A program made the position numbers and the translations under genes. A model generated the notes under the pieces. It did no database searches. It was given only the letters and a program-made list of their open reading frames with translations, and was not told the DNA's origin. DNA of 64,000 nt. Source: Clostridia bacterium (lineage in GTDB: Bacteria; Bacillota; DTU086). The stretch's first letter is position 1, and each line of letters starts with the position of its first letter. The DNA lies in the NCBI GenBank assembly GCA_012523575.1, contig JAAYIF010000006.1:64064-128063 (forward strand), given 5' to 3'. This document shows, piece after piece, positions 4,469 through 64,000 of this stretch.

Positions 4469-5116
4469 TTAATTTTGGGTTAATTTTTGTATTTCTTCGG
4501 CAAAGCATTCTTCTTTTTTCTCTAACCCTTCGCCTAGAGCATAGCGAGTAAATCTTCGTACCACGATGTTCTCTCCTAATTTTGCTATATATTCATTTAT
4601 CAAATCCTGTACGCTCTTATCGGTATCTTTAATAAAGGGCTGTTCCAACAGGCAGTTTTCCTCATAGAATTTTTCAATGCGTCCTTCTACTATCTTTTCC
4701 GCAATTTTTTCAGGTTTTCCTTCGTTTAAAGCTTGAGCTTTAAGGATGGCCTTTTCCTTTTCAATTACTTCTTCGGGAACATCCTGCCTGGAAACGTATT
4801 GGGGATTGGAAGCAGCTATCTGCATAGCTAAATCATGGCACAATGTTTTAAAAGCATCATTTCTTGCCACAAAATCTGTCTCGCAGTTAACCTCAACCAA
4901 TACTCCTATTTTTCCGTTTAAGTGAATATAGGAGGTAACCATTCCTTCAGTGGCAATTCTGTCAGCCTTTTTAGCCGCTTTTGCTAACCCTTTTTCCCTT
5001 AGGATGTCAACTGCCTTTTCAATATCTCCTCCTGCTTCTTCCAGGGCTCTTTTACAATCCATCATACCTGCCCCGGTCATGTCACGTAGTTTTTTGACAT
5101 CTACAGCATTTACCAT
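4469..5116 (-). CDS. tsf: elongation factor Ts
   Basis: [28 protein letters not shown]-terminus with a UBA-like fold; rpsB-tsf gene order. Confidence 0.9.
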
Positions 5117-5146
5117 CGCATGTCCTCCTTAATCTTAATCTATCTT

Positions 5147-5186
5147 TAAAAATTTTAAAAAAGGCAGGAAATTAACGATAATTCCT
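5147..5186 (-). terminator. rpsB-tsf intergenic hairpin (attenuator-type terminator)
   Basis: On the minus strand: GGCAGGAATTATCGTTAATTTCCTGCC followed by TTTTTTAAAATTTTT. Confidence 0.5.
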
Positions 5187-5206
5187 GCCTTTTCATTTTA
5201 CCACCA

Positions 5207-5932
5207 TTAAACTTCTTCTGCTTGTCCATCTTCTTCAACGGCTAAATCCTGCCCCTGCTTTCCCTCTATAACAGCATCTGCTATTTTATTGGTTAAAAGC
5301 TTCACTGCTCTGATAGCATCATCGTTGCCCGGGATTACATAATCAATTTCATCAGGATCACAATTGGTATCCACAATGGCTACGATGGGAATACCAAGCT
5401 TCCTTGCTTCCCGAACGGCAATCCTCTCTTTGCGGGGATCAACAATATATAGAGCGCCCGGAAGTTTATCCATATTTCTAATGCCACCAAGAAATCTCTC
5501 AAGCTTCTGTTTTTCCACCATTAATCTGGCAACTTCTTTTTTGGGCAGTAAATCAAAGGTGCCCTCCTCTTCCATTTTTTCTAACTCAAAGAGACGATTT
5601 ACCCTGCTTCTGATGGTTTGAAAGTTGGTCAGCATTCCTCCGAGCCATCTTTGATTTACATAAAACATACCGCATCTTTCAGCTTCCTCTTTTATTGAAT
5701 CCTGGGCCTGTTTTTTTGTTCCAACAAAAAGAATAGTTCCTCCTTCGCTTACCAAATTTTTAACAAAATTATAGGCTTCTTCAATCATTTTAACGGTCTT
5801 TTGGAGATCAATAATATAGATGCCATTTCTTTCAGTGAAAATATAGGGCTTCATTTTAGGATTCCAGCGTCTTGTCTGGTGACCAAAATGGACCCCCGCT
5901 TCCAGAAGCTGCTTCATTGTTACCACTGCCAT
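5207..5932 (-). CDS. rpsB: 30S ribosomal protein S2
   Basis: [27 protein letters not shown]...; AAGGAGGTG lies 6 nt before this ATG; the track ORF starts 11 codons earlier. Confidence 0.9.
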
Positions 5933-6088: not shown

Positions 6089-6877
6089 TTAATTTGATTT
6101 TTGCTTTAGTTTAGCCAATTCTTCAATTAAAATATCATTTAAAACCTTTATATATGTTCCTTTCATACCAACGGATTTGGTTTCTATTACGCCTGCACTT
6201 TCAAATTTTCTCAAAGCATTTACTATTACGGATCTCGTAATTCCTGCTCTGTCTGCAATTTTACTTGCTACCAAAACCCCTTCAGACCCTTTTAGCTCAT
6301 CAAAAATATGTTCCACAGCTTCCAGTTCTGAATATGAAAGGGTGCTTATGGCGATATGAACGGCTGCTCTTTTTCTAGCCTGCTCTTCTGCCTTTTCAGC
6401 CTTTGAACGCAAAATTTCCATTCCTATAACCGTGGCACCGTATTCAGCCAGAACCAGATCAGCTTCAGTGAATTTATTATTAAATTTTGCCAGTACCAAT
6501 GTTCCAATGCGCTGTCCGGCTCCGGCAATGGGCACGGATGTTACCAGTTTATTGCAAAAAATACACTTTCTATCAGCAAATAAACACTTATTTTCTTCTT
6601 GAGCAATATTGGACCTTGTTTCGTTATTGCTCAAAAGTTCCTGGTTATAATCTTCGGGGAAGCGGGACAATTGATAAACTATTTCTTCCATGATATCGCA
6701 GGTAAAACCCTCCATAAGAGCATATCCAAGAACCGAGCCTTCCTTGCTGAGAATGTAACAGTTTGCTCCAATAATATCCCTTAAAACTGATGCAATATCA
6801 TAAAAATTTACCGGTTGGCCACCGTACTGCTGCAACCTCTTGTTTATGCTTCGGGTCTTTTCAAGTAAAGATTTCAT
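6089..6877 (-). CDS. codY: GTP-sensing transcriptional pleiotropic repressor CodY
   Basis: GAF plus wHTH domains (...ASKIADRAGITRSVIVNALRKFESAGVIETKS...); AAGGAGG lies 7 nt before the MKSLLEK ATG; sits downstream of hslU as in Bacillus. Confidence 0.9.
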   Translation of the reverse strand: MKSLLEKTRSINKRLQQYGGQPVNFYDIASVLRDIIGANCYILSKEGSVLGYALMEGFTCDIMEEIVYQLSRFPEDYNQELLSNNETRSNIAQEENKCLFADRKCIFCNKLVTSVPIAGAGQRIGTLVLAKFNNKFTEADLVLAEYGATVIGMEILRSKAEKAEEQARKRAAVHIAISTLSYSELEAVEHIFDELKGSEGVLVASKIADRAGITRSVIVNALRKFESAGVIETKSVGMKGTYIKVLNDILIEELAKLKQKSN

Positions 6878-6897
6878 TTTTTTCCTCCTTAAAAAAA

Positions 6898-8301
6898 TCA
6901 AAGAATATATCTCGTTAAATCTTTGTTTTCAATAATTCCTTCCAGCTTATTCCGCACAAATTCCCTATCTATAATAAATTTTTGGGGTTCCAGATCCGGA
7001 GCTTCAAAAAAAAGATCCTCGAACAATTTTTCAAAAATAGTGTGCAGTCTTCGGGCTCCAATATCCTCTGTCTGCGTATTAATTTGGTAAGCTATTTTGG
7101 CAATTTCATCTATGGCGCTTTCTTGGAATTCAACGATATGGCCTTCTGTTTCCAGTAAAGAGGAATATAATTTTATCAAAGAGTTCTTAGGTTCCGTTAA
7201 AATCTTTTTAAAATGCTCTTCATTTAAACTATGAAGCTCAACCCTAATGGGGAATCTACCCTGAAGCTCCGGTATTAAATCCGACGGTTTACTGGTGTGG
7301 AATGCTCCGGCAGCTATAAAAAATATGTGATCGCTTCTTACCGGCCCAAATTTAGTCATTATGGTACTTCCCTCAACGATGGGAAGTATATCCCTCTGTA
7401 CACCTTCCCTGGATACATCGGGTCCATAATGACTGCCTGAACCGCAAATTTTATCTATTTCGTCAATAAAAATTATACCAGATTCTTCGGCTTTTTTGAT
7501 GGCTAAAGATTTTACTTCTTCCATATCAATAAGCCTCTCGGCTTCCTGCTGGGCTAATATATTCCGTGCTTCCTTCACTGTAACCTTGCGCTTTTTTTTC
7601 TTTTTGGGAAATACGCTTCCAAAGAGTTCCTGAAAATTAACTCCCATCTGTTCCATGCCGGTATCTGAAAATATTTCTAAAACCGGAACACTGGTATCCT
7701 CCACTTCTATTTCCACAATTTCTTCTTCTAATTCCTGCCTTCTGAGCTTTTCTCTTATTATTGCCCTTTGTTCCTTTATTTTTTTATATTTTTCTTCTCT
7801 GCTTTCTTCATCTAACGTACTTTCAGGTTTACCCACTGAAAACAGCATTTCAAAGGGGTTTTTCGCTGAATGGGATTTATGGGGGAAAGGGACCAATATC
7901 TCTACCAATTTATTTTCAGCTTCCTTTAGTGCTTTATGTTCAACTTCTTTTAATTTTTCCGCTTTTACCATTCTAATGGCTGTTTCAACCAGATCCCTAA
8001 CCATTGAATCAACATCCCGGCCAACGTACCCCACTTCGGTAAATTTTGTAGCTTCTACTTTTACAAAGGGAGCTTTTACCAATTTGGCAAGCCTTCGTGC
8101 TATTTCTGTTTTTCCAACTCCCGTAGGCCCTATCATGATAATGTTTTTTGGGGCCATTTCATCGCGTATGTCCTCAGGTAAAAATCTCCTTCGAAATCTA
8201 TTTCTTAAAGCCACTGCTACACATTTTTTTGCTTCGTGTTGTCCTACGATGTATTTATCAAGTTCATTGACAATTTGTTTTGGGGTGATTTCTTCCACCA
8301 A
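6898..8301 (-). CDS. hslU: ATP-dependent protease ATPase subunit HslU
   Basis: ...[21 protein letters not shown]... Walker A; ClpY family. Confidence 0.9.
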
Positions 8302-8313
8302 TTTCCCCTCCGT

Positions 8314-8847
8314 TTACAGTTTTTCTACGTATATGTTATGGTTTGTAAAAACACAAATGGAAGCGGCAATGTTGAGGGCTTCCTTTACTATTTCTTCAGC
8401 TTCCATATGGGTAAATCTAAGTAATGCCATTGCTGCCGCCTGAGCATACGCTCCGCCGGAACCAATAGCTGCAACGTCATTATCGGGTTGAATCACCTCT
8501 CCGTTTCCGGAAATTATTAGCAGATCATTTTTATCCGCAACAATCAACAGCGCTTCCAGGCGTCTAAGCAATTTGTCCGTTCTCCATTCCTTGGCCAATT
8601 CCACAGCCGCCCTCTGCAGACTGCCGTGATATTCCTCGAGCTTTCCTTCAAACTTTTCAAAAAGGGTAAAGGCATCTGCCACAGAACCTGCAAAACCCGC
8701 AAGCACTTTTCCATTATATAACCGCCTTACCTTGCGCGCCTTTTGCTTCAGAATGGTATTATTTCCGCCTAATGTTACCTGACCATCTCCCCCAACGGCT
8801 ACCACACCGTTTTTTTTAACACCGAGAATGGTTGTTCCCCTTAACAT
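8314..8847 (-). CDS. hslV: ATP-dependent protease subunit HslV
   Basis: [22 protein letters not shown]-terminal threonine protease. Confidence 0.9.
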
Positions 8848-8868
8848 GGCATAGCCTCCTTACAGCCT

Positions 8869-9789
8869 TTAGGCCCGGGGATGAAACTTTTTATAGGTTT
8901 CCTTTAATCTTTTTTTGTCAATATGAGTATAAATTTGTGTGGTAGAAAGATTCACATGCCCCAATAATTCCTGAACGGTACGCAGATCAGCTCCTTGTTC
9001 CAAGAGGTGGGTTGCAAAGGAATGTCTGAAAGTATGAGGGCTAACTTTTAACCTCAAGCTTTCCTTGGTAACATATTTTTCCACAATATATCTCACTCCC
9101 CGGGAAGTTAAGCGAGTTCCCTTTTGGCTTAAAAATACCGCATTTTTTGCATCTTCATTTTTTGCCCTTTTTATAAAAATAGGGCGGACATTCTCATAAT
9201 AATTTTTTAATGCTTCAACGGAATAATTCCCCAGGGGCAAAATCCTTTCAACGGCACCTTTTCCCATAACAAGCACCTGTTTGTTTTCCAGATCAATATC
9301 CCCTTCATTTAACCCCACCAGCTCTCCCACTCTCATTCCCGTTGCATAAAGAATTTCTAAAATGGCTTTATCACGTATTCCCAATAAGTGGTTTTCTGGT
9401 AGAATCAATATGTTTTCCATGGTTTCTGTGTACAAAAATGTTGGCAATTTTCTTCCCATTTTGGGGGACTTTACTTTTAGCATAGGATTAGATGATATTA
9501 TATCCATGCGTTTTAAGAACCTAAAAAAGCTTCTTAAACAAGAAATTTTCCTCGCAATGGTCCTTTTTTCACAGCCTTTTTCCTGCAAAAAAGAAAGAAA
9601 CTCCCTAATGGTTATATGGTCAACTTTATCTATACTATTAATATCTTTTTTATCTGACAAAAAACTTAAAAACTGAAGGAGATCAATTTTATAACTTTTT
9701 ACAGTATTACCTGAGAGATTGCGTTCTGCAGAAAGATAGTTGCAAAAAGGTTCAATCAAATCTGAAAATTTTAATTTTAATTCCTCCAC
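8869..9789 (-). CDS. xerC: tyrosine recombinase XerC (CodV-like)
   Basis: C-terminal ...HTFRHSFATHLLEQGADLRTVQELLGHVNLSTTQIYTHI... motifs; xerC-hslVU-codY operon order. Confidence 0.85.
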   Translation of the reverse strand: MEELKLKFSDLIEPFCNYLSAERNLSGNTVKSYKIDLLQFLSFLSDKKDINSIDKVDHITIREFLSFLQEKGCEKRTIARKISCLRSFFRFLKRMDIISSNPMLKVKSPKMGRKLPTFLYTETMENILILPENHLLGIRDKAILEILYATGMRVGELVGLNEGDIDLENKQVLVMGKGAVERILPLGNYSVEALKNYYENVRPIFIKRAKNEDAKNAVFLSQKGTRLTSRGVRYIVEKYVTKESLRLKVSPHTFRHSFATHLLEQGADLRTVQELLGHVNLSTTQIYTHIDKKRLKETYKKFHPRA

Positions 9790-9862
9790 AGATATTCATC
9801 TCGCAATACTTACTTAAATCAACCAAAATTAATGTTAGCATAATTATATTCTTCGGGCAACT

Positions 9863-16778: not shown

Positions 16779-16854
16779 TGGAGCCGACGACCGGATTTGA
16801 ACCGGTAACCTGCTGATTACAAGTCAGCTGCTCTGCCTGTTGAGCTACGTCGGC
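16779..16854 (-). tRNA. tRNA-Thr (anticodon UGU), CCA encoded
   Basis: Reverse complement is GCCGACGTAGCTCAACAGGCAGAGCAGCTGACTTGTAATCAGCAGG...GGTTCAAATCC...GTCGGCTCCA, a cloverleaf with anticodon loop CUUGUAA. Confidence 0.85.
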
Positions 16855-16863
16855 GCCATAAAG

Positions 16864-16940
16864 TGGTCGGGGCGGAGGGATTTGAACCCACGACCCCTTG
16901 GTCCCAAACCAAGTGCGCTTCCAAACTGCGCTACGCCCCG
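16864..16940 (-). tRNA. tRNA-Pro (anticodon UGG), CCA encoded
   Basis: Reverse complement is CGGGGCGTAGCGCAGTTTGGAAGCGCACTTGGTTTGGGACCAAGGGGTCGTGGGTTCAAATCCCTCCGCCCCGACCA. Confidence 0.85.
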
Positions 16941-17176
16941 TACTACGCAAGCTTTATTATAACTAAGAACAGGATCATAGTCAAGACTATGTTCCGGTCC
17001 GAATATGGTAAGTTGTTTGGGATATATGCTGCCCTGTCCGAAAAAGCAGCAATTTATATTTGAATTAATTTTAAAAAATGTTTTCGTGTAAATTTATATT
17101 TAATTTTTACATTAAATATAATTTATTCATTTATAATTAAAATATAGAACGAAAATAAAAAAGTGGAGTGATTTAA

Positions 17177-17488
17177 GTGATCTCTGGACTTAAAAAAGCT
17201 TTTCTTTTAGGTTTAGGTGCAATTTCCATTACAAAGGAAAAAGCAGAGAAACTTTTTGATGAAATGGTTAAAAGAGGCGAAATTACGAGGGAAGAAGCCA
17301 AAGAATTATTAAACAGTTTAATGGAAAAGGGTAAGGAGGAAGGAGAAAAAATTAAAGAAACGGTAAGAACAGAATTTGAAAGGCTAAAGGTGTCGAACAA
17401 GTTTGTTACCAAGCAGGAGTTTGATATGCTAACCGAAAGGGTTGCTAAGTTGGAGGAAATTCTGCAAAACAAAGAATCTGAACAATAA
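17177..17488 (+). CDS. phasin-family / COG3937-like small coiled-coil protein
   Basis: GTG start after AAAGTGGAGTGA; MISGLKKAFLLGLGAISITKEKAEKLFDEMVKRGEITREEAKELL... matches the conserved N-terminus of the Clostridial phasin-like (PHA synthesis regulator) family. Confidence 0.65.
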   Translation: MISGLKKAFLLGLGAISITKEKAEKLFDEMVKRGEITREEAKELLNSLMEKGKEEGEKIKETVRTEFERLKVSNKFVTKQEFDMLTERVAKLEEILQNKESEQ

Positions 17489-17494
17489 AAAAAA

Positions 17495-17569
17495 TGGCTG
17501 GGACGGCTGGATTCGAACCAACGATGACGGGTCCAAAGCCCGTTGCCTTACCCCTTGGCTACGTCCCAC
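17495..17569 (-). tRNA. tRNA-Gln (anticodon UUG), CCA encoded
   Basis: Reverse complement is TGGGACGTAGCCAAGGGGTAAGGCAACGGGCTTTGGACCCGTCATCGTTGGTTCGAATCCAGCCGTCCCAGCCA; a U1-A72 acceptor pair is typical of tRNA-Gln. Confidence 0.85.
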
Positions 17570-22499: not shown

Positions 22500-22586
22500 T
22501 GGTGCGGCAGAAGGGATTTGAACCCCCACGGGCGCCAGCCCACTAGACCCTGAACCTAGCGCGTCTGCCAGTTCCGCCACTGCCGC
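22500..22586 (-). tRNA. tRNA-Leu (anticodon CAG), long variable arm, CCA encoded
   Basis: Reverse complement is GCGGCAGTGGCGGAACTGGCAGACGCGCTAGGTTCAGGGTCTAGTGGGCTGGCGCCCGTGGGGGTTCAAATCCCTTCTGCCGCACCA. Confidence 0.85.
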
Positions 22587-54389: not shown

Positions 54390-54425
54390 AAATTTGCCAG
54401 AGCCTAAGGCATCTGGCTTTCAAAT
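54390..54425 (-). terminator. terminator of the ylzJ-like gene (stop codon inside the loop)
   Basis: GCCAGATGCCTTAGGCTCTGGC followed by AAATTTTTTTAATTT on the minus strand. Confidence 0.5.
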
Positions 54426-54637
54426 AATAAAGTGTAATTTAGTACAGTTCCCGGTTGAAATCTCATATTAAGGTAATCCTGAGGGTTGCTGCTTATCAGC
54501 CTTACCACTTTAGCAGTTCCGTCTTTTTGATCCTCTATCTGTAAAGTAACTTCCCCCATTTTTATTTCTTTAAACTGCGGTTTAACGGAATCATCATATA
54601 ATAGCAGCTCCGGAGAAACCAGTGTGTAAATCACCAT
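54404..54637 (-). CDS. YlzJ-like small protein (synteny-based call)
   Basis: 77-aa ORF overlapping the 3' end of the ClpP-like gene by 7 nt and lying upstream of uppP-ftsK; matches the Bacillus order tepA-ylzJ-spoIIIE. Confidence 0.4.
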
Positions 54638-55029
54638 TTCCCATCTTCTCCATTATTTTTACTTTTTCTTAAATCAATAAGCTCCTTTATTTTTTCAACG
54701 GCTTCTGAAAGACCTCCCACTTCATCTATTAATCCTACCTTAACAGCATCGGGTCCCACCAGAACAGTTCCGATATCCCTCGTAAGTTCACCGGTCTTAA
54801 ACATTAACTCCCTGAATTTTTCCTGACTAATATTGGAATGATCAACAACAAACTTAACTACCCTATCCTGCATTTTTTCAAGATAATCAAACATCTGGGG
54901 CACACCCAAAACCAATCCCGTTAACCGAATGGGGTGTATGGTCATTGTCGCTGTCTCGGCTATAAATGAATAGTCAGCTGAAACAGCTATAGGTACACCG
55001 ATTGTGCCCTTGTCGCTACGGATTTCTTC
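54631..55029 (-). pseudogene. tepA: 3' portion (about 133 codons) of a ClpP-like tepA/ymfB homologue; the 5' half is absent at this locus
   Basis: In-frame coding [38 protein letters not shown]...[17 protein letters not shown] aligns with the C-terminal half of the ClpP fold (...MIHQP-type segment onward). An in-frame TAG sits immediately upstream at 55030-55032 and there is no ATG/GTG/TTG before the internal Met. Confidence 0.5.
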
Positions 55030-55045
55030 CTAATTTATATATACT

Positions 55046-56740
55046 TCACATTTCAACTGCGATTTTAAACCGCACTGCACTTTCGCTGCCCGCTTCGCTG
55101 AGCTCCATGAGGTTTATGTTATAGACTATTTCCATTTTATCACGCCGGAGAACAATTTTGTCTATGATTTGCTTTAGCATTTTCTTTTTGGTTTCCACGG
55201 GAGACTCTTTAAAAATTTCAAACCAGCGGGGAGCCAGCCTTGCAAACTGTTTTAAGCTGTCCCGCTCTACCTGCTTTTGCTGAAGTTCAGCCTTAAGCTC
55301 TGCTATCTGCTCCGTTATGACTTTCTCTTCCTCTTCCGCTTTTTTGATTTCCCTGGCCATCATTTCTTCAGAATAAATGCTTCCTTCCGGATCGGCAAAA
55401 TATTGGTTCAAACGATCAACCCAGCTGTTTAAACGCCGCCGCACTTTTTTAAGCTCCTTTTCAAGCTGTGTAATCTGTCTGCTGATCTGACTGCGGGCTG
55501 AAGCCTGCTTCATGTTTACATAGTGCTCTAAGCTTCCCAGATCAACATTTTTTAAAAAACTTTCAAGTTCGCTCATAAAAATGCCGTCAATCTTTTTCTG
55601 CGAGTAGCTTCCCTGACCCGAACAGAACGCCGATCCTTTCCTTGCATGAGTTGAACAGCGGTAAACTGCCTTTTCATATGTATACACCTTTCCGTTCGGT
55701 TTAACGTTCTTTGCGTTTCTGGTGCGGCTTGAGATAAAACCTTTCCCGCAGCAGCCGCACTTTAAAAAGCCCGTCAAAAGAGCTGTGCTGTCCATGGATC
55801 TTGCATCCGGTTTTGTGTTCTTTGAGCGCTTTTTCATTATTTCCATCAGCTTCTGCCATTCCTCAAGGGAAATAATTGTGTATTCTTTGATGGGCTTTGG
55901 ATTTCCGTTTTCGTCCCGGGGGATAATTATTTCTGGATTGTTGATGTCGTACCAGTTTTTAATCCTAACCCTTGATGTAGGTGTACTGCCCGGTTTCGTT
56001 CGGTTGTAGGCCGGCAGACCGGCAATGATAGGATTCTGCAGAACGTCTCTAACCCTTGCGTCCGTCCACAAACGATTTTCCCTGGTGCGGTAGCCGTGCT
56101 CATTTAAGTAAACGGCAATCTTTTTACTGCCCCAGTCTTCTTCAAGGTAAAGACGCTTCATAAGGAGAAGTATTTCCGCTTCTTTCTGATTGATCTCCAG
56201 TGGAAGCCCTTTTTTCGAATCCGAAAGTTTAAATCCATAAGGAGGCCTGCCGCCTGACCAGTGCCCCCGTTTTGCCATGTCCATCATGGAGGTTTTTACC
56301 CTAATGGAAGTGTTTTTGCTTTCGGTTTCAGCCTGCCAGCCTTCGATAAAACGTAGAAGTTTGTCCATCTGATCATCAACGTTTAGAGAGCGTCCGCCTG
56401 GAGCATCAGCGACCGCTATTACTTCTACTCCTGCATCGTAAAAAGACTTCAGGATCAGCGGATATTCAAAAGACTGCCTGCTGAGCCTGTCAGCCTTAAA
56501 TATCAGCAGAACGTCAAATTTTCCCTGCAGGGCATCCGATAAAACATCCTGCAGAATGTCTCTTTTGTCCGAAGATATTTTAAATGCACTGACGCCAGGC
56601 TCTATGTATTCTTTTACCAGTTCCCAGCCTTTTTCTCTAACAAAACTTCTTATAGTATGCTGCTGAGCTGGTATGCTGTCGTCTTCATTCTTAAGCTGTT
56701 TTTTTGTGGATACCCGATATAAGGCAGCTGCTCTGGTCAA
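55046..56740 (-). CDS. large serine recombinase
   Basis: Resolvase catalytic domain (AALYRVSTKKQ; ...KADRLSRQ...), recombinase domain, zinc-ribbon (CGCCGKGF...C..H) and a C-terminal coiled-coil. The likely start is a TTG giving MTRAAALYRVS; the track ORF extends to 56842. Confidence 0.8.
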   Translation of the reverse strand: MTRAAALYRVSTKKQLKNEDDSIPAQQHTIRSFVREKGWELVKEYIEPGVSAFKISSDKRDILQDVLSDALQGKFDVLLIFKADRLSRQSFEYPLILKSFYDAGVEVIAVADAPGGRSLNVDDQMDKLLRFIEGWQAETESKNTSIRVKTSMMDMAKRGHWSGGRPPYGFKLSDSKKGLPLEINQKEAEILLLMKRLYLEEDWGSKKIAVYLNEHGYRTRENRLWTDARVRDVLQNPIIAGLPAYNRTKPGSTPTSRVRIKNWYDINNPEIIIPRDENGNPKPIKEYTIISLEEWQKLMEIMKKRSKNTKPDARSMDSTALLTGFLKCGCCGKGFISSRTRNAKNVKPNGKVYTYEKAVYRCSTHARKGSAFCSGQGSYSQKKIDGIFMSELESFLKNVDLGSLEHYVNMKQASARSQISRQITQLEKELKKVRRRLNSWVDRLNQYFADPEGSIYSEEMMAREIKKAEEEEKVITEQIAELKAELQQKQVERDSLKQFARLAPRWFEIFKESPVETKKKMLKQIIDKIVLRRDKMEIVYNINLMELSEAGSESAVRFKIAVEM

Positions 56741-56798
56741 GACAGACCATTCCCCTCTTCTAAAAATAGCGTTAAAAATGTTGTTAATTATCGCTTCC

Positions 56799-56984
56799 TT
56801 ACGGAAGGGATCTTTCCGGTGGAAAAGTTGATTCCTGCTCAAGTTCCTGCAAAATCATTTCTGCCACATGTTTTTTAAATCTTTCTACACTTTCAGGGTC
56901 GTTCCTTTTTGGAAAAACATTGCATACCTCAATCCCGTTTCTTCTTGACGTTAAGCGAATATACTCTTTATCAACCCTTTTCAA
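56799..56984 (-). CDS. small hypothetical protein (uncertain)
   Basis: 61-aa ORF with a TTG start, overlapping the 5' end of the recombinase track ORF. Confidence 0.2.
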   Translation of the reverse strand: MKRVDKEYIRLTSRRNGIEVCNVFPKRNDPESVERFKKHVAEMILQELEQESTFPPERSLP

Positions 56985-57030
56985 AAAATATACACCCCTT
57001 TTTTAGAGTGCTCAAAATATTTCTGATTAT

Positions 57031-57061
57031 GCCAACAAAAAAACGCAGGCCTTATGCCTGC
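57031..57061 (-). terminator. terminator after the HNH-HTH gene
   Basis: GCAGGCATAAGGCCTGC followed by GTTTTTTTGTTGG on the minus strand; the stop codon lies in the loop. Confidence 0.5.
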
Positions 57062-57947
57062 GCTGCGTCTCTGCTATGGGTTTCCAAAAGGAGAATCAGT
57101 GCTTCCTTCAGCCAATCCGCTGCTTTACCGCCGCTTTCAAAACCCTCTGCTGCAAGAAGGTAGGCTTTTTCCGCCTTTGCCATAAGCACATCGGTTTCCT
57201 TTGTCTTTCCGTAGAAAATTTTTATCCTTTCTTCCATCTGACGGGTGGACCACTGATTTTCCGCAGCTGCAATTATCCACTTTTGAGGATCCGGGGTGCT
57301 TGCCGCTATCCTGTGGTGCCGCCATGAAAGAAACGGAACACGCATTTCCTCTTCGGGAAACGCTTTAAAGGTTTTGGAAAGCTCTCTTACCTGGGAAGCT
57401 GAACAGCCGAGCCAGGAAGCTGCTTTCCTTGAGCTTATCCCCATACCCTCCGTCAAAACGAGGCACACCGCTCCCTTGGCCCAGCGGGTGTCGTCTTCGG
57501 ATTCCTGAAGGGAAGCGTACATCTGGAGGAGCTCTTCCAGGGTGTATTTTGAAAGCTCCGGAACAGGAGCTGAAGACAGTTCGGGAACCTCTTCAGGAGC
57601 GGGCCAGCCGATCTTTTCGCATATTTCTTCAAGGGACAGGCCCTCACGACGGGCGGCAATAAGAGCAAGTTCTGTATAGAGTATTTTTCCGTCGTGTGCC
57701 TGCCTGTGGCAGTCAAGGCAGAGCTGGATCAGATTCTCTTTTATGTCCGAACCCCAAGGCTCCTGGGCCTAATGTGATGGGGCTGACCGGAAGCTTTCTT
57801 TCCGCATCGTTCGCAATAAGGTTTCCGGCACCCCTCAATGACACTTTTTGATGCAACCCTGACAGGTTTTGAAAGGTCAGGCAAGCAGGGACCCCCTTTC
57901 CGTTCTTGAAAAAAATAAGCCCGACCGCTTCCGATCGGGCTGCGCAC
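57052..57947 (-). pseudogene. HNH endonuclease fused to a C-terminal HTH-like domain, interrupted by a 1-nt frameshift in a G4/C4 run
   Basis: Frame A (57741..57947) ends ...CERCGKKASGQPHHIRPRSLG; the -1 frame continues GSDIKENLIQLCLDCHRQAHDGK... and runs without stops into the 57052..57522 ORF. Together they rebuild the HNH motif HHIxPRSxGG-SD...NL..LC..CH. Confidence 0.55.
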
Positions 57948-58044
57948 GCGCGTACCTTAACTTTTTGCCGACATTTTTTTGTCGTTTTTGGACATACTAC
58001 GACCTACAGACAGTATACATGATCTCTGCGTCGGCTGTCAATAT

Positions 58045-59670
58045 TTATTTTTTAATTTTTTCTACAAGTTCATCAATAACCGTTTTTCCCCGGACTGCTT
58101 TTCCGTCCAGTACGGCCTCTGCCGTTTCCCTCTTTTGAGATAAGATTGAAAGTATTTTTTCATCTATCGTGCTCAAGCCCTCTATGCTTGCCACGAGGCA
58201 CCACACCGTTACGCTTGACTTCTGGCCGATTCTGTGACAGCGATCCGCACACTGATCAAAATCCGCAGGCCTCCAGGGATATTCTAAAAAAGCAACGTTT
58301 GACGCTGCTGTGAGGGTCAAGCCGACGCCCGCCGCCTGAATGGAGCCTATAAAGAGCCTGCATTCGGGGTCGTTCTGGAACCTGTCAACCTGCGACATCC
58401 TGTCCTTCGTGTCTCCCGCTACGACGGCACTTTTCGGAAATGTTTCTGCAAGGGCATTAATGATCTCCTTGTGATGCGCAAACACGACTAATTTTTCACC
58501 TGATTCCATAAAATCACGGATCCACTCCACCGCAGACTGAAATTTTCCAGCTGCAGCAATCTGCTTCAAGTATTCGATTTTAACCATCGCTTCAGCTTTA
58601 AGAGCAGCGCTCAGCCTTCTGCCGTCGTAAACCCCTTCCCGGACTTTTTCTTCAAGCCAGTTAATAAAATCTTCTTCAACTTTGATGTAAGTTTCGGGAT
58701 TGGAAATTTCAATTGGAATAACAGCTATTCTTTTTGAGGGAAGATCTTTCAAAACGTCTTTTTTCAAGCGCCTTATCATTACGGTACTTTTAAGCCTTTC
58801 ATTAAGCTCGTCCAAATTGGATCTTCCTGAAAAATCCCATATGAGTCTTTTTCCACCGCCGCGGACGACAATTTCCCTGCGGTAGCCGCTGCAGTATCTC
58901 TTGCCGAAAGCAATGTAATTGTCGAATTCGTGAGGAGCAAGAATGTTTAAAAGATTGAACATTTCTATTGGCCTGTTTAAAAGTGGAGTCCCAGTAAGAA
59001 GAATCACGGCTTCAGCGTTTCTGCATATTTTTTTAAAAGCCTTAGATCTTGCAGCCTTCGAATTCTTTATGTAGTGTGCTTCGTCTCCTATTACGGCTTT
59101 GGGTTTAAGATAATCAACCCATGCGTCTAAAATGTCATAGTTTATGATTAATATGCCTGCCTGAACTTTTCCGGGGTTTCTGCCGGAAAGAACGGCAACC
59201 CTATTTTCCGGACAGTCCTCCAAAAATTTTTCACATTCTCTCTTCCAGTTGAGCTTAAGGCTTGCAGGGCACACTATCAACGCAGGTCTTAAGTCTTTTC
59301 TTGCCTGGAGAAAAGCCAACGCCTGAACCGTCTTTCCAAGCCCCATCTCATCAGCAATCAGTACCCTTTTTTTCTTCAGGGTAAATGCAACAGCTTCCAT
59401 TTGATAGGGATAAAGGCTTCCTTTAAAACCCTTGAGGTCAGGAACGCTTTCTGGTTCGGCTTCAGGCTCCAAGGAAACCCCCTGAAGCCTGAAACCGTTT
59501 TCTGCAAGAATAGGGGCAGCAGAAAGAGACACTTTCCAAGCCCGAATTGCAGGAATGTACTTTGAGCCCGGAAGGGATTTTACGAATCTTACGATTTCCG
59601 GATCGTACCGGAAGTACACAACCAGATGATCTTCTCTGCGGATTACCCTACCTTTTTCTGGTTGCATTGC
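58045..59670 (-). CDS. SNF2-family helicase (phage-type)
   Basis: ...LYPYQMEAVAF..., ...LIADEMGLGKTVQALAF..., DEAH-like ...IGDEAHYIKN..., helicase-C motifs; the probable start is MQPEKGRV. Confidence 0.8.
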   Translation of the reverse strand, partial: AMQPEKGRVIRREDHLVVYFRYDPEIVRFVKSLPGSKYIPAIRAWKVSLSAAPILAENGFRLQGVSLEPEAEPESVPDLKGFKGSLYPYQMEAVAFTLKKKRVLIADEMGLGKTVQALAFLQARKDLRPALIVCPASLKLNWKRECEKFLEDCPENRVAVLSGRNPGKVQAGILIINYDILDAWVDYLKPKAVIGDEAHYIKNSKAARSKAFKKICRNAEAVILLTGTPLLNRPIEMFNLLNILAPHEFDNYIAFGKRYCSGYRREIVVRGGGKRLIWDFSGRSNLDELNERLKSTVMIRRLKKDVLKDLPSKRIAVIPIEISNPETYIKVEEDFINWLEEKVREGVYDGRRLSAALKAEAMVKIEYLKQIAAAGKFQSAVEWIRDFMESGEKLVVFAHHKEIINALAETFPKSAVVAGDTKDRMSQVDRFQNDPECRLFIGSIQAAGVGLTLTAASNVAFLEYPWRPADFDQCADRCHRIGQKSSVTVWCLVASIEGLSTIDEKILSILSQKRETAEAVLDGKAVRGKTVIDELVEKIKK

Positions 59671-59680
59671 CTTTTCCTCC

Positions 59681-60784
59681 CTACACCTCATAAAAAGTAG
59701 AAATTTCGGGATAGAACTCAACAGGTATTACGCCTGTAGGACCGTTTCTGTGCTTTGCAAGGATGATTTCCACGGAACCGTTTTCTTTATTCAAAAATAT
59801 AACGACGTCCGCATCCTGTTCAATTGCTCCTGAGCCCCGAAGGTCCGACAATTTGGGTTTTCCGCTTCTCTTTTCGATTTCACGTCTCATCTGGGAAAGA
59901 GCGAGCACGGGCACATCCAGCTCCTTTGCAGCGGCCTTCAGAGAAGCTGAAATTGCGGCTATTTCATTCTCTCTGCTGTCGTACTTTTTTCGTGTTTTCA
60001 GCAGCTGAAGGTAGTCAATCACGTAAAGATGCGTTGTTTCAACAACTTCTTCTGCCCTGTGCATGTCCTCTTCAACAATTTCCTGTACACGAAGACCCGT
60101 TAAGCAGCAGGCAGTTTTTCTTATGATCTGCTCTGCCTTCATTTCAAGAGAGAAAAAAGCAACAACGCCTGACTGGGCTGCGTTTGCCGCAATCTGCACT
60201 GCAAGGGAAGTTTTACCTGCTGAAGGTCTGCCTGCAAGAACGATAAATTCTCCGGGGTGCATACCCTTCGTCCATGTATCAAGCTGGTCAAATCCGTACA
60301 AAACTCCGTATTCAAGGTCTTTAAGGCTCTCTTTAAGAAGGTCGGAAGCTTTTACAAACGTATTTGTGTTTTTTGAATCTTTATAGCGCCTGACTGCATC
60401 AAGCATTAAATCAATGCGGGGATCAACCTCTTTTCCGTCATAGATCTCTTTGACAGCTCTGATAATTTTTCTCAAAGCACTTTTTTCCCTTACAGCTGAA
60501 GCAAACGCAAACGCATCACTGCTGTCAATTTCTTTTTTTATCAGGGCACATTTTTCGGGAGCAAGATCAACCTTACGCTTCAAAGCCTCAAGAGAAAGAA
60601 CTTCGCCTGAAGCGTGTACTCTGCGCAAAAACTCATAGGCATCAGCAAAACTCCTATCGGCAAAATCGTCCCTGCTTATGTCGAAGAATATGCCCTTTAA
60701 AGCAGCGGAAATCACGCCTGCCTCTGCTTCTAGGTCTATAAGACTTACGCTCTTATTTCCGCCCGTCTTAACAGCTTTAAGCAA
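59681..60784 (-). CDS. DnaB-family replicative DNA helicase (phage-type)
   Basis: ...FIVLAGRPSAGKTSLAVQIAANAA... Walker A; ...LSQMRRE..., ...LRGSGAIEQDADVVIFL... RecA-fold motifs. Confidence 0.8.
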   Translation of the reverse strand: MLKAVKTGGNKSVSLIDLEAEAGVISAALKGIFFDISRDDFADRSFADAYEFLRRVHASGEVLSLEALKRKVDLAPEKCALIKKEIDSSDAFAFASAVREKSALRKIIRAVKEIYDGKEVDPRIDLMLDAVRRYKDSKNTNTFVKASDLLKESLKDLEYGVLYGFDQLDTWTKGMHPGEFIVLAGRPSAGKTSLAVQIAANAAQSGVVAFFSLEMKAEQIIRKTACCLTGLRVQEIVEEDMHRAEEVVETTHLYVIDYLQLLKTRKKYDSRENEIAAISASLKAAAKELDVPVLALSQMRREIEKRSGKPKLSDLRGSGAIEQDADVVIFLNKENGSVEIILAKHRNGPTGVIPVEFYPEISTFYEV

Positions 60785-60938
60785 TTATATTCCCCCTCTC
60801 AGAAAAAGTTCAAAACATTTCGTGCACTGACGAAACCGGGAACATCTGGAGGGGGTGTACGCATTCTCCTGATGAGCTCAAGCCTTTTTTTTCGTTCAAC
60901 AAGGTACTTTCTGTGCTCTTTAAGTCTCTTTTCATGCT

Positions 60939-60968
60939 CTTCAGGATACTTTTCTGAGAACGGTCGGT
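60939..60968. repeat. 30-bp direct repeat copy 1 (CTTCAGGATACTTTTCTGAGAACGGTCGGT), candidate iteron
   Basis: Perfect 30/30 identity with copy 2; lies just 3' of the replisome-organizer stop. Confidence 0.8.
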
Positions 60969-60975
60969 CGTGTTA

Positions 60976-62028
60976 TCAGCAATAATTTCCCCTTCTCGCC
61001 TGTCCTTCAGGATACTTTTCTGAGAACGGTCGGTACTCTTCCTCAAGGAAACGATCGTACTTTTGTCCACTTTCAAGTTCCTCTTTTTTGATACGGGCTA
61101 CCTTGAATAGATAGGCTATCGGGTTTTCGACAGCATCCCCTTTTTCAAAACGCCTGACAAGGGCTGATACAGAAAATTCGGCAGCAGGAAAATCGTATAG
61201 ATTGTAAAGTCTTCCTGCTATAGCATAGGCTTTTTTAGGTTCTATGACACGTCGCAGCCCATTTCCAAGGATCGCTATCAAATCCTTGTTTGAAACACTT
61301 GCATTTAAAACGCCTGATGGGGTATAATTATTACAGCTTTCTTCTACGTCTGCGTCTGGGGATTCGTCCTCAGGCGTTTTTCTTTTATCCCCTCCTTTCA
61401 TCGGAACTTTGACGACTTCGTCGGAAGTTCTATCTTCACCCAGATAGGTAATTACCTCTTCAGGCGCTTTTCTTTTTATACTTCTTTCTGTTGAGATTCC
61501 ATCGGATTTACCAGAAGATTTACTTCTTATCACTTCCTCGGGCGTTTCTGACACGCACGCACCCGTTGAGGGTGCGTGTATAGATTCTAATCCGATAGGA
61601 TTAGAATCTATACTATAAGATTCTTGATCTTTATATTCTTGATCTGAGTCTTCTTTATAGGAAGCTGGTTTCCGCTCTTGACCGGAAGAGGGTTTCCGGT
61701 CAAGAAAGGTTCTTAAGTCGTTTATGTAATATACGTTCGTCTGCGTCAATCCTCTTCTCTTGCAAGATATGAGTCCCGCTTCCTGAAGCTCAGAAAGATA
61801 CGTGCGTACGGTTTTCTCAGAGCAACCGATTGCATCTGCAAGTTTTTCTTGTCCAGGAAATGCCTCCCCACTCTTCCAGGCGAACTTCAAAAGTAGAAAG
61901 TACGTAATTTTTGCCCCCGGGCTTAAATCCGGTTCTTCAAGGACAGCGTTTGGAACTGAAGTAAAGCCGTGTTTTAATGTTTTGTCTTTGAATTTTAGGG
62001 TTTTTTCTTTTTCTTCTGTTGTAGGCAT
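60976..62028 (-). CDS. phage replisome organizer / replication initiator (N-terminal wHTH)
   Basis: ...FTSVPNAVLEEPDLSPGAKITYFLLLKFAWKSGEAFPGQEKLADAIGCSEKTVRTYLSELQEAGLI... matches the phage replisome-organizer N-terminal domain; direct repeats flank its 3' end. Confidence 0.6.
   Translation of the reverse strand: MPTTEEKEKTLKFKDKTLKHGFTSVPNAVLEEPDLSPGAKITYFLLLKFAWKSGEAFPGQEKLADAIGCSEKTVRTYLSELQEAGLISCKRRGLTQTNVYYINDLRTFLDRKPSSGQERKPASYKEDSDQEYKDQESYSIDSNPIGLESIHAPSTGACVSETPEEVIRSKSSGKSDGISTERSIKRKAPEEVITYLGEDRTSDEVVKVPMKGGDKRKTPEDESPDADVEESCNNYTPSGVLNASVSNKDLIAILGNGLRRVIEPKKAYAIAGRLYNLYDFPAAEFSVSALVRRFEKGDAVENPIAYLFKVARIKKEELESGQKYDRFLEEEYRPFSEKYPEGQARRGNYC
61005..61034. repeat. 30-bp direct repeat copy 2, inside the last codons of the replisome-organizer gene
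   Basis: Identical to copy 1, 66 bp away. Confidence 0.8.
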
Positions 62029-62083
62029 TTATTTCATTTCCCCTTTCTTTTAGTTTATTGAGTAATTTATTGAGGAAAGGACG

Positions 62084-62692
62084 TTAGGAAAGCATTGAAA
62101 TCCTTATGCTGTTTGATGACCTACCCCCTCCCCTGCCTTTTTTGAAACTTCCGTTCGGGGGAAGATCTTTACTACTGCAGCAAACTTCAACCGGGGTAAA
62201 TGAAGGTCTGTACGCATTTTTTATCGCCTGCTTGAGGTCGTTCGTTGTCGTGGGATCGGTGAGGAGGTTGCGAGGGCCCGTTTGGACGCAGCTGAACCAA
62301 ACAAAGTCGGGGTCAGAAAGTTTGCTTTTCTTGACGAAAGGAAAGATTTTTCTTTGGTGTCTTAATAGCCATTCGTACGCTTCTCTTTCTTCTTGGACAT
62401 ATTCCTGCCTTCTCTGCTCCTGCTTTTTTCTTTTCTCTTCTTCTTTTTGCTGTCTTTTTATTCTTCTTTGTTCTTTTCTTTTCTTAAGCTCTCTTTTTCT
62501 GCGGTTTTTTTCTCTTTCTAGTTTGCGGGCTTCTTTTTCTTTTAAGTAAGCATTGTAGTCGTACTTTATAATCGCTTCTCTTACTGCTACTTTGCTGACA
62601 CCAAATTGCCTCGCGATGTCGGCTAAAGTCATCTTTTTGACATAAAAGCACTCAACATAAGCCTCCGATCTTGATCTTGCCCTGACAGGCAT
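62084..62692 (-). CDS. HTH protein with a long K/R/E-rich low-complexity region
   Basis: N-terminal ...KKMTLADIARQFGVSKVAVREAI... HTH, then about 70 aa of KEARKLEREKNRRKRELKKRKEQRR... Confidence 0.45.
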   Translation of the reverse strand: MPVRARSRSEAYVECFYVKKMTLADIARQFGVSKVAVREAIIKYDYNAYLKEKEARKLEREKNRRKRELKKRKEQRRIKRQQKEEEKRKKQEQRRQEYVQEEREAYEWLLRHQRKIFPFVKKSKLSDPDFVWFSCVQTGPRNLLTDPTTTNDLKQAIKNAYRPSFTPVEVCCSSKDLPPNGSFKKGRGGGRSSNSIRISMLS

Positions 62693-62963
62693 TTTTTCAC
62701 CCTCCCCGCTTTTATTGCAGCCGGGAGTGTGTTATAATGTGATCAGCCTCAGTGACGCTGCGATCTGAGCATATTGGAAATATGTCGGCTGCATGGGCTT
62801 ATAGTAACATTAAACCTGACAATAAGTCGATGCTGTTATTGACAGATTGTACGCTTTATTTGCTAAATATTGTATAAAAGCTGACAAAATCTTAATAATT
62901 TTTACATTTTTGTTTGACATTTTGTCGGTTCCTCGAAAGGATCGACGTAAGGTGGTGAGAAAA

Positions 62964-63338
62964 GTGATCGGCAGCAGGATCAGGGAAGCAAGAGAGTTAA
63001 GGGGCATGTCGCAAAAAGAACTTGCAGAAAAAATAAGCAAAAAGATCGGGAAGAAGCTTTCTGTGGATGCGGTTGGATCCTATGAAAGGGAAAAGCGCAA
63101 ACCCCCCTATGATACGCTTGTTGCCATTGCCGACGTGTTGGGGGTTTCCGTTGATTATCTCACGGGAAGGAGTGATGTGCTCTGCGGGCAGCAGGCTGAA
63201 GACGACAGTGAAGAGTTTGCCTCACTTGTGACCGCAATGTTCAGAGCACAGGGAAGGTTAACAAAGGAAGAGAGGGAAAGGCTTATAAAAGTTTTAAAAG
63301 CAGGCTGGCCGGAATTATTTGAAGAAAGGGCTGAATGA
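62964..63338 (+). CDS. XRE-family transcriptional regulator (ImmR/CI-like)
   Basis: GTG start after AAGGTGGTGAG; IGSRIREARELRGMSQKELAEKIS HTH; divergent from the replication genes. Confidence 0.75.
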   Translation: MIGSRIREARELRGMSQKELAEKISKKIGKKLSVDAVGSYEREKRKPPYDTLVAIADVLGVSVDYLTGRSDVLCGQQAEDDSEEFASLVTAMFRAQGRLTKEERERLIKVLKAGWPELFEERAE

Positions 63339-63912
63339 TTTGCTGAACTGCGTTTGTCCTGAAAGGCTTGAGGAAATTCGCATGACAGCAAAATTGCTTA
63401 TAAAGAATATAAAAAGGCCTCCAGCGCCTATTTTTTCTATCGCAAAATCTTTTGTGCCTGTTGTCTACGTAACCGACAGCGGACTCAAAGATGCAGTGTG
63501 CTTTCACTGGAATGGAGAATACAGGATTTTCGTTGAGCTGATGGACAATATATATGAGAGGGTGAGGTACAGTCTAGCGCATGAACTCGCTCATTTTATC
63601 TTTAAACACAACGATTATCTTATGCTTAAAGCAAAGGAACTGGGTATAAAAATAAAAAGACAGGATTTTTTTCTGTTTTGGAACGAAGTGAAGGGACTTG
63701 AAAAATATGTTAAAGAAACAGATGAAGAGGCAGAAACCTTTGCAGCAGAAGTTCTTATGCCTATGCGATGGCTCTACATACCTAAAAGCGCACGTGAATT
63801 TGAAGAACTGCGTAAAAGCCTTGAAGTTTCAAAGAGAGCACTTAAAAAAAGGCTTTTTGAAACAGGCATGATGACTTACGAAGAAATTGATAGGCTTTTT
63901 TTAAAAAAATAG
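63319..63912 (+). CDS. ImmA/IrrE-family zinc metallopeptidase (anti-repressor protease)
   Basis: HEXXH (AHELAHFIF) plus downstream EAETFAAEVLMP; overlaps the XRE gene by 20 nt. Confidence 0.75.
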   Translation: MKKGLNDLLNCVCPERLEEIRMTAKLLIKNIKRPPAPIFSIAKSFVPVVYVTDSGLKDAVCFHWNGEYRIFVELMDNIYERVRYSLAHELAHFIFKHNDYLMLKAKELGIKIKRQDFFLFWNEVKGLEKYVKETDEEAETFAAEVLMPMRWLYIPKSAREFEELRKSLEVSKRALKKRLFETGMMTYEEIDRLFLKK

Positions 63913-63917
63913 AAAGC

Positions 63918-63950
63918 CGGGAAAAATCCCAGCTTTATTTTTGTCCCCTT
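63918..63950 (+). terminator. terminator after the ImmA-like gene
   Basis: AGCCGGGAaaaaTCCCAGCT followed by TTATTTTT. Confidence 0.4.
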
Positions 63951-64000
63951 TGTCCCCCTATTTTTCACATCTGAAACGGGCTCACTATGGCGATATTAAG

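Follow-up and report, generated by a model that had tools for sequence, protein, structure and literature searches.

A putative integrative element at the active-site codons of the germination protease gene tepA in a clostridial genome

Introduction

Does a recombinase-bearing element that splits a sporulation gene take part in the developmental programme of its host, or has it simply inactivated the gene that it entered? This question is raised by a stretch of 64,000 nt from a Clostridia bacterium (contig JAAYIF010000006.1, positions 64,064 to 128,063; hereafter the window), in which the gene of a large serine recombinase (LSR) adjoins the 3' part of the ClpP-like gene tepA. An earlier note on this DNA had proposed that a phage-like block starting at 55030 interrupts tepA and that the gene is rebuilt by programmed excision during sporulation, in the manner of skin or SPbeta. 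Our analysis indicates that the region from around 54996 to 64000 and beyond is probably the recombinase-proximal end of a horizontally acquired integrative element and that its effect on tepA is most likely plain insertional inactivation.

TepA is a cytoplasmic germination protease that is expressed almost exclusively in sporulation (PMC5404308) and has been treated, together with Gpr, as one of "the two major germination proteases" (PMC11960778). The genes that known intervening elements interrupt are specific to the mother cell, and because excision takes place in this terminal cell, the elements can remain in the germ line (PMC4191935; PMC5595907). In C. difficile, tepA has been assigned to "The forespore line of expression" as part of the sigma-F regulon, and its protein was detected in spores (PMC3789822); in B. 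subtilis and B. cereus, the gene is repressed by the forespore regulator SpoVT (PMC5061766). Going by this literature on C. difficile, B. subtilis and B. cereus, tepA would be a forespore-line gene and would thus not belong to the mother-cell-specific genes in which intervening elements are found.

Results

The ClpP-like fragment and its host neighbourhood

The minus-strand open frame that follows an in-frame TAG (55030-55032) ends with a stop codon at 54633-54631, and its match to CLP_protease (PF00574, E 1.5e-6) is confined to profile positions 88-179, the C-terminal half of the ClpP fold. In the profile search, the TepA sequence also matched PF01343 alongside PF00574, and NCBIfam holds no TepA-specific model. 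By sequence comparison, the fragment is 75-80% identical to proteins that are named TepA at their source and shares 69-80% identity with full-length ones. In full-length TepA (228-231 aa), its counterpart is the stretch of residues ~115-223, and it starts right after the active-site motif GGGHS, which sits at the position of the ClpP active-site serine. This motif and all N-terminal TepA residues are absent from the window, which therefore encodes no complete TepA. The nine codons between the TAG and IGVPIAV (EEIRSDKGT) are read from the attachment (att) arm of the element and not from tepA. Of the approximately 133 tepA codons claimed by the earlier note, which correctly saw that only the 3' part of the gene is present, it is thus 123 of about 132 that derive from tepA (55002-54634; 54631..55002 with the stop codon).

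Downstream on the same strand follow ylzJ (54404..54637; PF14035, E 9e-19), the operon partner of tepA that is now cut off from the tepA promoter, then uppP (54286-53513) and ftsK (53460-51235). The gene order read by the earlier note (ftsK, uppP, a ylzJ-like gene and a ClpP-like tepA) is borne out by the PF14035 and PF00574 matches and by this same-strand synteny. The operon context of TepA is present in the window with ylzJ and ftsK, and RNase J is found upstream of tepA 5' halves in five related loci (L005, L006, L010, L021 and L022). GC content is 0.34-0.39 in the host flank and increases to 0.42-0.51 in the element block, and the tepA fragment itself is host-like in this respect. Together with phage-type early genes, this rise agrees with the GC-richer, phage-like block that had been described up to the window end; the TAG at 55030-55032 and, 13 nt from it, the stop codon of the LSR gene (TGA at 55048-55046) likewise lie where the note had placed them.

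Could the fragment instead be a prohead or head-maturation protease of the element, so that no host gene would be split? Full-length TepA does weakly match models of ClpP-related head-maturation proteases, though far below their cut-offs. Against this stand the identity of the fragment to TepA of many spore-formers, the host synteny of the ylzJ, uppP and ftsK genes that follow it, its host-like GC content and its synonymous divergence (dS) of 0.91 from the sister strain, compared with 0.12-0.20 for element genes. Since this dS and a ratio of nonsynonymous to synonymous divergence (dN/dS) of 0.05 are host-like, the fragment counts as host DNA, and the phage protease reading can be rejected with near certainty. 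We identify the ClpP-like fragment from its sequence as the host tepA gene, interrupted at the attachment site of the LSR, in agreement with what the earlier note had taken it to be.

The attachment junction lies within the tepA active-site codons

The LSR-proximal attachment junction (attR-type; 54975..55019, minus strand) was delimited by alignment of four LSR-side junctions, those of the window and of the related loci L001 (the sister element), L003 and L004, and is composed of an element arm, a central GT and a host half-site. The 23-nt arm, GTAGCGACAAGGGCACAATCGGT at 55019-54997, follows the pattern GTAGC(G/T)AC(A/T)(A/T)GGG... that is common to all four junctions, where it is joined to a host core of the form AT.GG.(GT/AC).CC.AT; the host half-site in the window is ACCTATAGCTGTTTCAGCTG. 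The core itself is quasi-palindromic (ATCGGTGTACCTAT, 55002-54989), and arm and core together span 55019-54989. The window contains a single copy of the junction motif GTAGCNACNNGGGNNNNATNGGNRYNCCNAT (54989-55019), where 0.01 would be expected by chance, and each locus likewise has one. The identity between the window and L001 breaks off exactly at the core, with the first differences flanking the central GT. Scans with NCBIfam, Rfam, tRNA and inverted-repeat searches found nothing further at the junction.

From the symmetry of the reconstructed attP (see below), the crossover dinucleotide of the window element is predicted to be the GT at 54996-54995. The element boundary would accordingly fall inside the core at around 54995-54996, about 35 nt further in than the start at 55030 that the earlier note had given for what it rightly saw as an insertion in tepA. 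As read from the alignment, the integration core ATCGGNGTNCCNAT falls within the codons by which tepA specifies the active-site motif GGGHS-IGVPI. At the far junction of the window element we predict the tepA 5' half (~110 codons, ending in ...LGGGHS) to run into the P' arm as ...CAYAGYATCGGTGT-ACCTATTGTGCCCTTGTCGCTAC; the predicted rejoined attB is ...GGNCAYAGYATCGGTGTACCTATAGCTGTTTCAGCTGAC and the predicted attP GTAGCGACAAGGGCACAATCGGTGTACCTATTGTGCCCTTGTCGCTAC.

The recombinase and its transcription unit

The LSR gene (55046..56740, minus strand) has a TTG start and encodes 564 aa with the catalytic motif YRVSTKKQ and the domains Resolvase, Recombinase and Zn_ribbon_recom. The resolvase domain (PF00239, E 1e-23) contains the nucleophilic-serine motif within AALYRVSTKKQ, and the C-terminal part matches PF07508 (E 5e-16) and PF13408 (E 8e-11) as well as, weakly, coiled-coil-type models at residues 422-530. 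The protein thus combines the catalytic domain and motif with the recombinase and zinc-ribbon domains and the coiled-coil insertion of serine integrases, and it matches the integrase family phrog_95 with an E value of 3e-95. It is under purifying selection (dN/dS 0.085 between the window and L001).

The closest relative is 97% identical (P0001, from the metagenome-assembled genome (MAG) "Clostridia bacterium 41_269"), followed at 54-66% identity by LSRs of Thermanaeromonas toyohensis, Neomoorella glycerini, Thermanaeromonas sp. C210, Desulfoscipio and Desulfofundulus. Characterised LSRs are only distant (SprA/YokA with E ~1e-7, phiC31, TP901-1), the best NCBIfam matches (SCCmec-type Ccr including CcrB, also XisF) fall far below their cut-offs, and among IMG/VR and GenBank phages no relative is closer than 29% identity.

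Directly upstream of the LSR gene lies a conserved open reading frame (ORF) of 61 codons (56799..56984, minus strand) that is found in all five related elements with upstream sequence. Its counterparts in L001 (9833-9994), L003 (9814-10062), L004 (9815-9997) and L023 (7971-8153) bring the size range to 53-82 aa and share 58, 26 or 32% identity with the copy in the window; the N..FP and A.M positions are invariant. The small ORF matches nothing in Pfam, PHROGs or NCBIfam, and we infer that it is a candidate accessory factor or recombination directionality factor (RDF). Small ORF and LSR gene seem to form a separate transcription unit because they are preceded (56987..57064, minus strand; consensus matches only) by an intrinsic-terminator-like hairpin at 57064-57042 and a weak sigma-A-like promoter, TTGAGC-17-TATATT, at 57015-56987. 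A sporulation-type promoter was not recognised upstream of them in a crude consensus scan, by which the sporulation-sigma promoters of this taxon are not recognisable.

Related elements at the same tepA site and reconstructed att sites

LSR homologues occupy the same position in tepA of Thermanaeromonas, Moorellaceae, Desulfofundulus, Desulfallas, Neomoorella and uncultured Clostridia, and this site is used by related elements in at least six genera of thermophilic anaerobic spore-formers. In every locus inspected, the LSR adjoins a tepA fragment in the ylzJ/ftsK neighbourhood, and the order LSR, tepA 3' half, ylzJ, ftsK is also that of the sister MAG, T. toyohensis and Thermanaeromonas C210. 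A junction-pattern scan of genome and metagenome collections was pooled with loci L001-L004 and L023. Nine distinct junctions on the LSR side (arm, tepA 3' half, ylzJ, ftsK) resulted, besides five junctions of the tepA 5' half, in which residues ~4-120 run through the core into the symmetric arm. Four of these five (L005, L006, L010 and L021) are far-end junctions without an LSR nearby; the fifth is the LSR-side junction of N. glycerini (L004). RNase J lies upstream of the tepA 5' half in all four canonical far junctions, and the missing half is thus found in homologous elements where the earlier note had expected it, at the other end, in the same orientation and next to this neighbour.

Both junctions of one element could be paired in a Desulfofundulus MAG (L005 and L011), which share a 20-bp core, CAGCATCGGGGTGCCGATAG. 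Joining their host sides yields an uninterrupted, in-frame attB (...GGGHSIGVPIAV... / ...LGGGHSIGVPIAVAAQYSFIAE...), and joining their element sides yields a 48-bp attP, GTAGCGACATGGGCAGC-ATCGGGGTGCCGAT-AGTGCCCCTGTCGCTAC, with inverted arms that match at 14/17 positions and GT at the centre. This pair has the properties of serine-integrase att sites, namely short sites, an inverted-repeat attP and an identity to attB that is limited to the core. At the level of sequence, the pair and the other junctions demonstrate the split-gene architecture for the element family. The two marks of an intervening element are thus seen in different places, the interruption of a sporulation gene by a recombinase element in the window and the restoration of the frame in L005/L011; for the window element itself, in-frame restoration of tepA by excision is predicted.

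Traces of such insertions are also present among protein sequences: among the 120 closest TepA clusters, about 12 begin precisely at the core, preceded by residues that the arm encodes, whereas arbitrarily truncated ones keep GGGHS. All 14 of the tepA halves examined are intact ORFs. For the far junction of the sister MAG, the exact-pattern scan gave an LSR-side match only. L018, which comes from the same metagenome and was considered as the missing far junction, turned out to be an LSR-side junction of another organism. No match of the junction or attP pattern, as expected of a free attP form, was found in viral contigs. A short query of TepA joined to the P'-arm tail returned short fragments only, with a choice of candidates that depended on length; two of them have the tail, both from Pelotomaculum schinkii (P0288 and P0303), and the species of the window was not among the matches.

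Two related loci show rearranged forms. In Neomoorella glycerini (L004; CP046244.1, 11701-12488), a terminator hairpin comes after the LSR, next the att arm with the core, and next a tepA 5' half (residues 13-120) in inverted orientation; 190 bp separate this half from ftsK, and both ylzJ and RNase J are missing. Its central dinucleotide, read in the direction of the LSR, is AC, compared with GT in all other elements. Since a flipped dinucleotide would flip the orientation, this arrangement implies, as far as its sequence can tell, an insertion in the opposite orientation and a second rearrangement. In Pelotomaculum schinkii (L022; QFGA01000001.1, 9940-11000), a fossil far junction is located between the RNase J terminator and an intact tepA of 280 aa. 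Its parts are a 116-bp stretch that copies the 5' end of tepA with 89.7% identity to the resident gene, a P' arm that has degenerated, and foreign DNA of ~0.8 kb, and they are enclosed by a ~45-bp direct repeat from the terminator region of RNase J; we read this junction as the relic of a former insertion beside the restored gene.

Elements and hosts have different histories

Comparison of the window with L001 separates element from host. At the nucleotide level, the LSR genes are 95.0% identical and the spacer and arm match at 42/42 positions, compared with 84.8% for the tepA 3' half, 75.7% for ylzJ, 80.4% for uppP and 78.5% for ftsK. In synonymous divergence, the LSR (0.20) and an HNH-like gene of the element (0.12) stand against 0.91-1.24 for the four host genes, with 0.91 (dN/dS 0.048) for the tepA 3' half. 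From this gap it follows that the element is 5-10 times younger than the split of the two hosts and was acquired horizontally. Related Thermanaeromonas hosts (80-87% identical) carry LSRs that are only ~60% identical, whereas distant hosts (64-75% identical) share arms that are 93% identical.

Cargo is equally variable. L001 (1-5118) carries a TnpB/Cas12f-like gene, an N6/N4 DNA methyltransferase and a 989-aa ResIII/SWI2-SNF2 protein with the look of a defence island, none of which it has in common with the window element despite LSRs that are 97% identical. The element of N. glycerini encodes a coupling protein of a type IV secretion system, and far-end cargo in other relatives comprises a TGT/DpdA-like protein with UvrD, a multicopper oxidase, and a PIN protein with an M23 peptidase. 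The incongruence of elements and hosts and the variable cargo point to repeated horizontal acquisition of elements that appear to be actively transferring and not domesticated. An old insertion with selectively kept tepA halves was rejected when the co-divergence comparison showed the elements to be younger than, and incongruent with, their hosts.

Cargo of the window element

The window element continues past the window end (64000), and its visible part includes a lysogeny switch and a replication module of the temperate-phage type. On the minus strand lie an HNH-endonuclease-like gene (57052..57884), a SNF2-family helicase (58045..59721; phrog_62, E 7e-118), a DnaB-like replicative helicase (59681..60784; phrog_19, E 3.5e-71) and, by profile match, a replication initiator or DnaD-like helicase loader with an HTH_36 domain (60976..62028). 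The first gene of the leftward early operon encodes a basic 202-aa protein (62084..62692) with a weak match to a YlxM-like helix-turn-helix. Divergent from it, on the plus strand, are a CI-like HTH_3 repressor (62847..63338) and an ImmA/IrrE-type M78 metalloprotease that would act as anti-repressor (63319..63912), both assigned by profile match. The HNH-like gene has a 1-nt frameshift near 57753, which could be a pseudogene mutation or an assembly error; the L001 homologue (6835-7668) is intact, with 277 aa, and 97-100% identical.

Discussion

Plain insertion or regulated excision

In the mechanism that we consider most plausible, the LSR alone would carry out attP x attB integration into the tepA core and thereby split the gene. 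The 3' half and ylzJ would remain beside uppP and ftsK, while the 5' half with its promoter should be found at the far end beside RNase J, reading into the P' arm. The insertion would inactivate a gene that is very conserved but dispensable, presumably with loss of TepA function. Only upon excision of the element in the course of its own transfer or induction would the gene be rebuilt, through the LSR and an RDF under the CI/ImmA switch and not as a programmed step of sporulation.

How does this compare with a skin- or SPbeta-like scenario, in which a sporulation-controlled RDF and the LSR would excise the element in the mother cell and rebuild tepA there while the forespore keeps the element? 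Such a role would suit an LSR element that splits a sporulation/germination gene at a symmetric sequence with a restorable frame, with all tepA halves intact and with a conserved small ORF beside the LSR that could be the RDF, and SPbeta is an example of an active phage that is yet developmentally excised (PMC4191935). However, TepA acts in the spore and its gene is of the forespore line; TepA that is made in the mother cell after excision would sit in the wrong compartment and could not serve the spore. All known intervening elements reside in mother-cell genes, and the disagreement of element and host histories speaks against a long-term vertical association. Cargo varies, too, and the lack of a recognised sporulation promoter upstream of the LSR unit adds a weak argument. 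The programmed excision that the earlier note had envisaged is thus not supported, and we regard it as very improbable.

Excision in the forespore, in turn, would cure the germ line of the element. Under a germ-line form of "active lysogeny", the element would leave the chromosome in the forespore or at germination, persist as an episome while TepA is made and be re-integrated by the LSR alone during outgrowth. An LSR that suffices for integration and has its own transcription unit would be suited to this, an element-encoded replication module could maintain the episome, the tepA halves are intact with low dN, and the site recurs in at least six genera. Yet no free form bearing attP was found in viral contigs, and the cargo varies widely to include elements resembling integrative and conjugative elements (ICEs) or islands without obvious replication modules. 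Intact tepA halves are moreover no evidence for reconstitution, since recent turnover of the insertions explains their intactness. We consider this cycle improbable; if it were true, these would be the first intervening elements in a forespore-line gene and would form a reversible germ-line switch tying element carriage to spore revival. It is likewise unlikely that the window element is a defective or truncated remnant whose source genome has lost or rearranged the tepA 5' half, leaving tepA a permanent pseudogene. The frameshift in the HNH-like gene, the failure of the exact pattern to find the far junction of the sister MAG and the rearranged or fossil versions in N. glycerini and P. schinkii would be in keeping with a dead element, but the LSR is full-length with its catalytic motif and a dN/dS of 0.085, the arm is identical to that of the sister element, the CI/ImmA and replication genes are intact and the tepA 3' half is without lesions.

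Some points weigh against insertional inactivation by an active element as we propose it. The window shows the LSR-side junction only, and the element may be truncated or rearranged. Control of the LSR or an RDF by sporulation sigma factors could have escaped the promoter scans, which are crude. The P. schinkii fossil beside an intact tepA could reflect selection to restore the gene. Finally, the intactness of 14/14 tepA halves and the very low dN of the tepA 3' half would also fit continued use of the gene via excision.

Comparison with known systems

A close parallel among sporulation-related elements is SPbeta of Bacillus subtilis (SprA/SprB, spsM), likewise an active LSR-integrated element at a symmetric sequence inside a sporulation-related coding region, with a recombinase gene that adjoins one att site and with precise excision that restores the frame. 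In contrast to forespore-line tepA, spsM is expressed in the mother cell and its excision depends on a sporulation-controlled RDF (PMC4191935, PMC5499854), and the LSR of the tepA elements is only remotely related to SprA/YokA (E ~1e-7). The skin element with SpoIVCA in sigK (B. subtilis, C. difficile) as well as vfbin, vrin and gin also bear LSRs and interrupt sporulation genes of endospore-formers, but they are mostly defective and sit in the mother-cell-specific genes sigK, spoVFB, spoVR and gerE; the tepA elements differ from this type by recent horizontal transfer, turnover, variable cargo and a forespore target.

Prophages of the A118/phi10403S kind in Listeria comK resemble the tepA elements in that a serine-integrase prophage splits a host gene, and in their "active lysogeny" reversible excision is understood to restore the gene without loss of the element (PMC7192596). 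Host process (here spore outgrowth) and LSR clade differ, and the reversible excision seen there is only hypothesised for the tepA elements. To our knowledge, reversible excision of the comK type is the only known logic that fits a gene needed in the germ line.

Mycobacteriophage Bxb1 in groEL1 and similar LSR phages disrupt a conserved coding sequence as a tolerated side effect, and their excision needs the phage RDF at induction. The tepA insertions share with Bxb1 the inactivation of a conserved host gene by an LSR but differ in host phylum, target and LSR clade, and the tepA attB is common to phage-like, ICE-like and island elements. With SCCmec (CcrAB/CcrC) they share one conserved chromosomal site for LSR-mobilised islands of highly variable cargo; unlike tepA, which is cut at its active-site codons, rlmH (orfX) is entered by SCC at its 3' end and is not destroyed.

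The element appears to belong to a previously undescribed LSR clade that, to judge from the loci compared, combines diverse cargo (phage-like, ICE-like, defence or accessory islands) with a single attB. What is new is this clade, its mapped att sites, the recurrent target at the tepA active-site codons and a forespore gene as target, while the mechanism itself is standard. Our literature search found no earlier report that links tepA with prophage integration, which agrees with the earlier note's view of tepA as a new insertion target, and a survey of regulated gene integrity (Mageeney et al. 2020 supplements) contains no tepA or CLP_protease case. The new attB/attP pair, with a conserved 14-20-bp core and a ~48-bp attP, resides in a gene of almost all endospore-formers. 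For thermophilic Clostridia such as sulfate reducers and the acetogens Moorella and Thermanaeromonas, it might offer an orthogonal integrase/att pair whose landing site is predictable. A germination protease gene is a recurrent hot spot of mobile elements in at least six genera, with a forespore target that falls outside the accepted mother-cell logic. Either lysogens bear slower spore outgrowth as a measurable cost of carriage, or a new kind of regulated excision is at work, and cultured lysogens exist in D. thermobenzoicus DSM 14055, T. toyohensis ToBE, N. glycerini and Desulfallas sp. Bu1-1.

Further observations

Relative to the window (56741-57042), the sister element L001 contains an insertion of ~2.1 kb between the HNH-like gene and the small ORF (7677-9799) with two genes on the opposite strand, one of 243 aa (SurA_N-like) and one of 168 aa. 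In the host flank of L001, ftsK and a rodZ-like gene are separated by a selU-like gene that is missing from the window. In Thermanaeromonas sp. C210 (L023), a group II intron reverse transcriptase (RVT_1 and GIIM; 4570-5709) is located ~2.5 kb upstream of the LSR; its neighbours are metabolic-looking genes (DUF1638, URO-D-like) and non-homologous end-joining genes (Ku, LigD), which may be cargo or host. The window further contains four tRNA genes (Thr-TGT, Pro-TGG, Gln-TTG and Leu-CAG) at 16779-17568 and 22500-22586 on the minus strand, which are unrelated to the tepA insertion.

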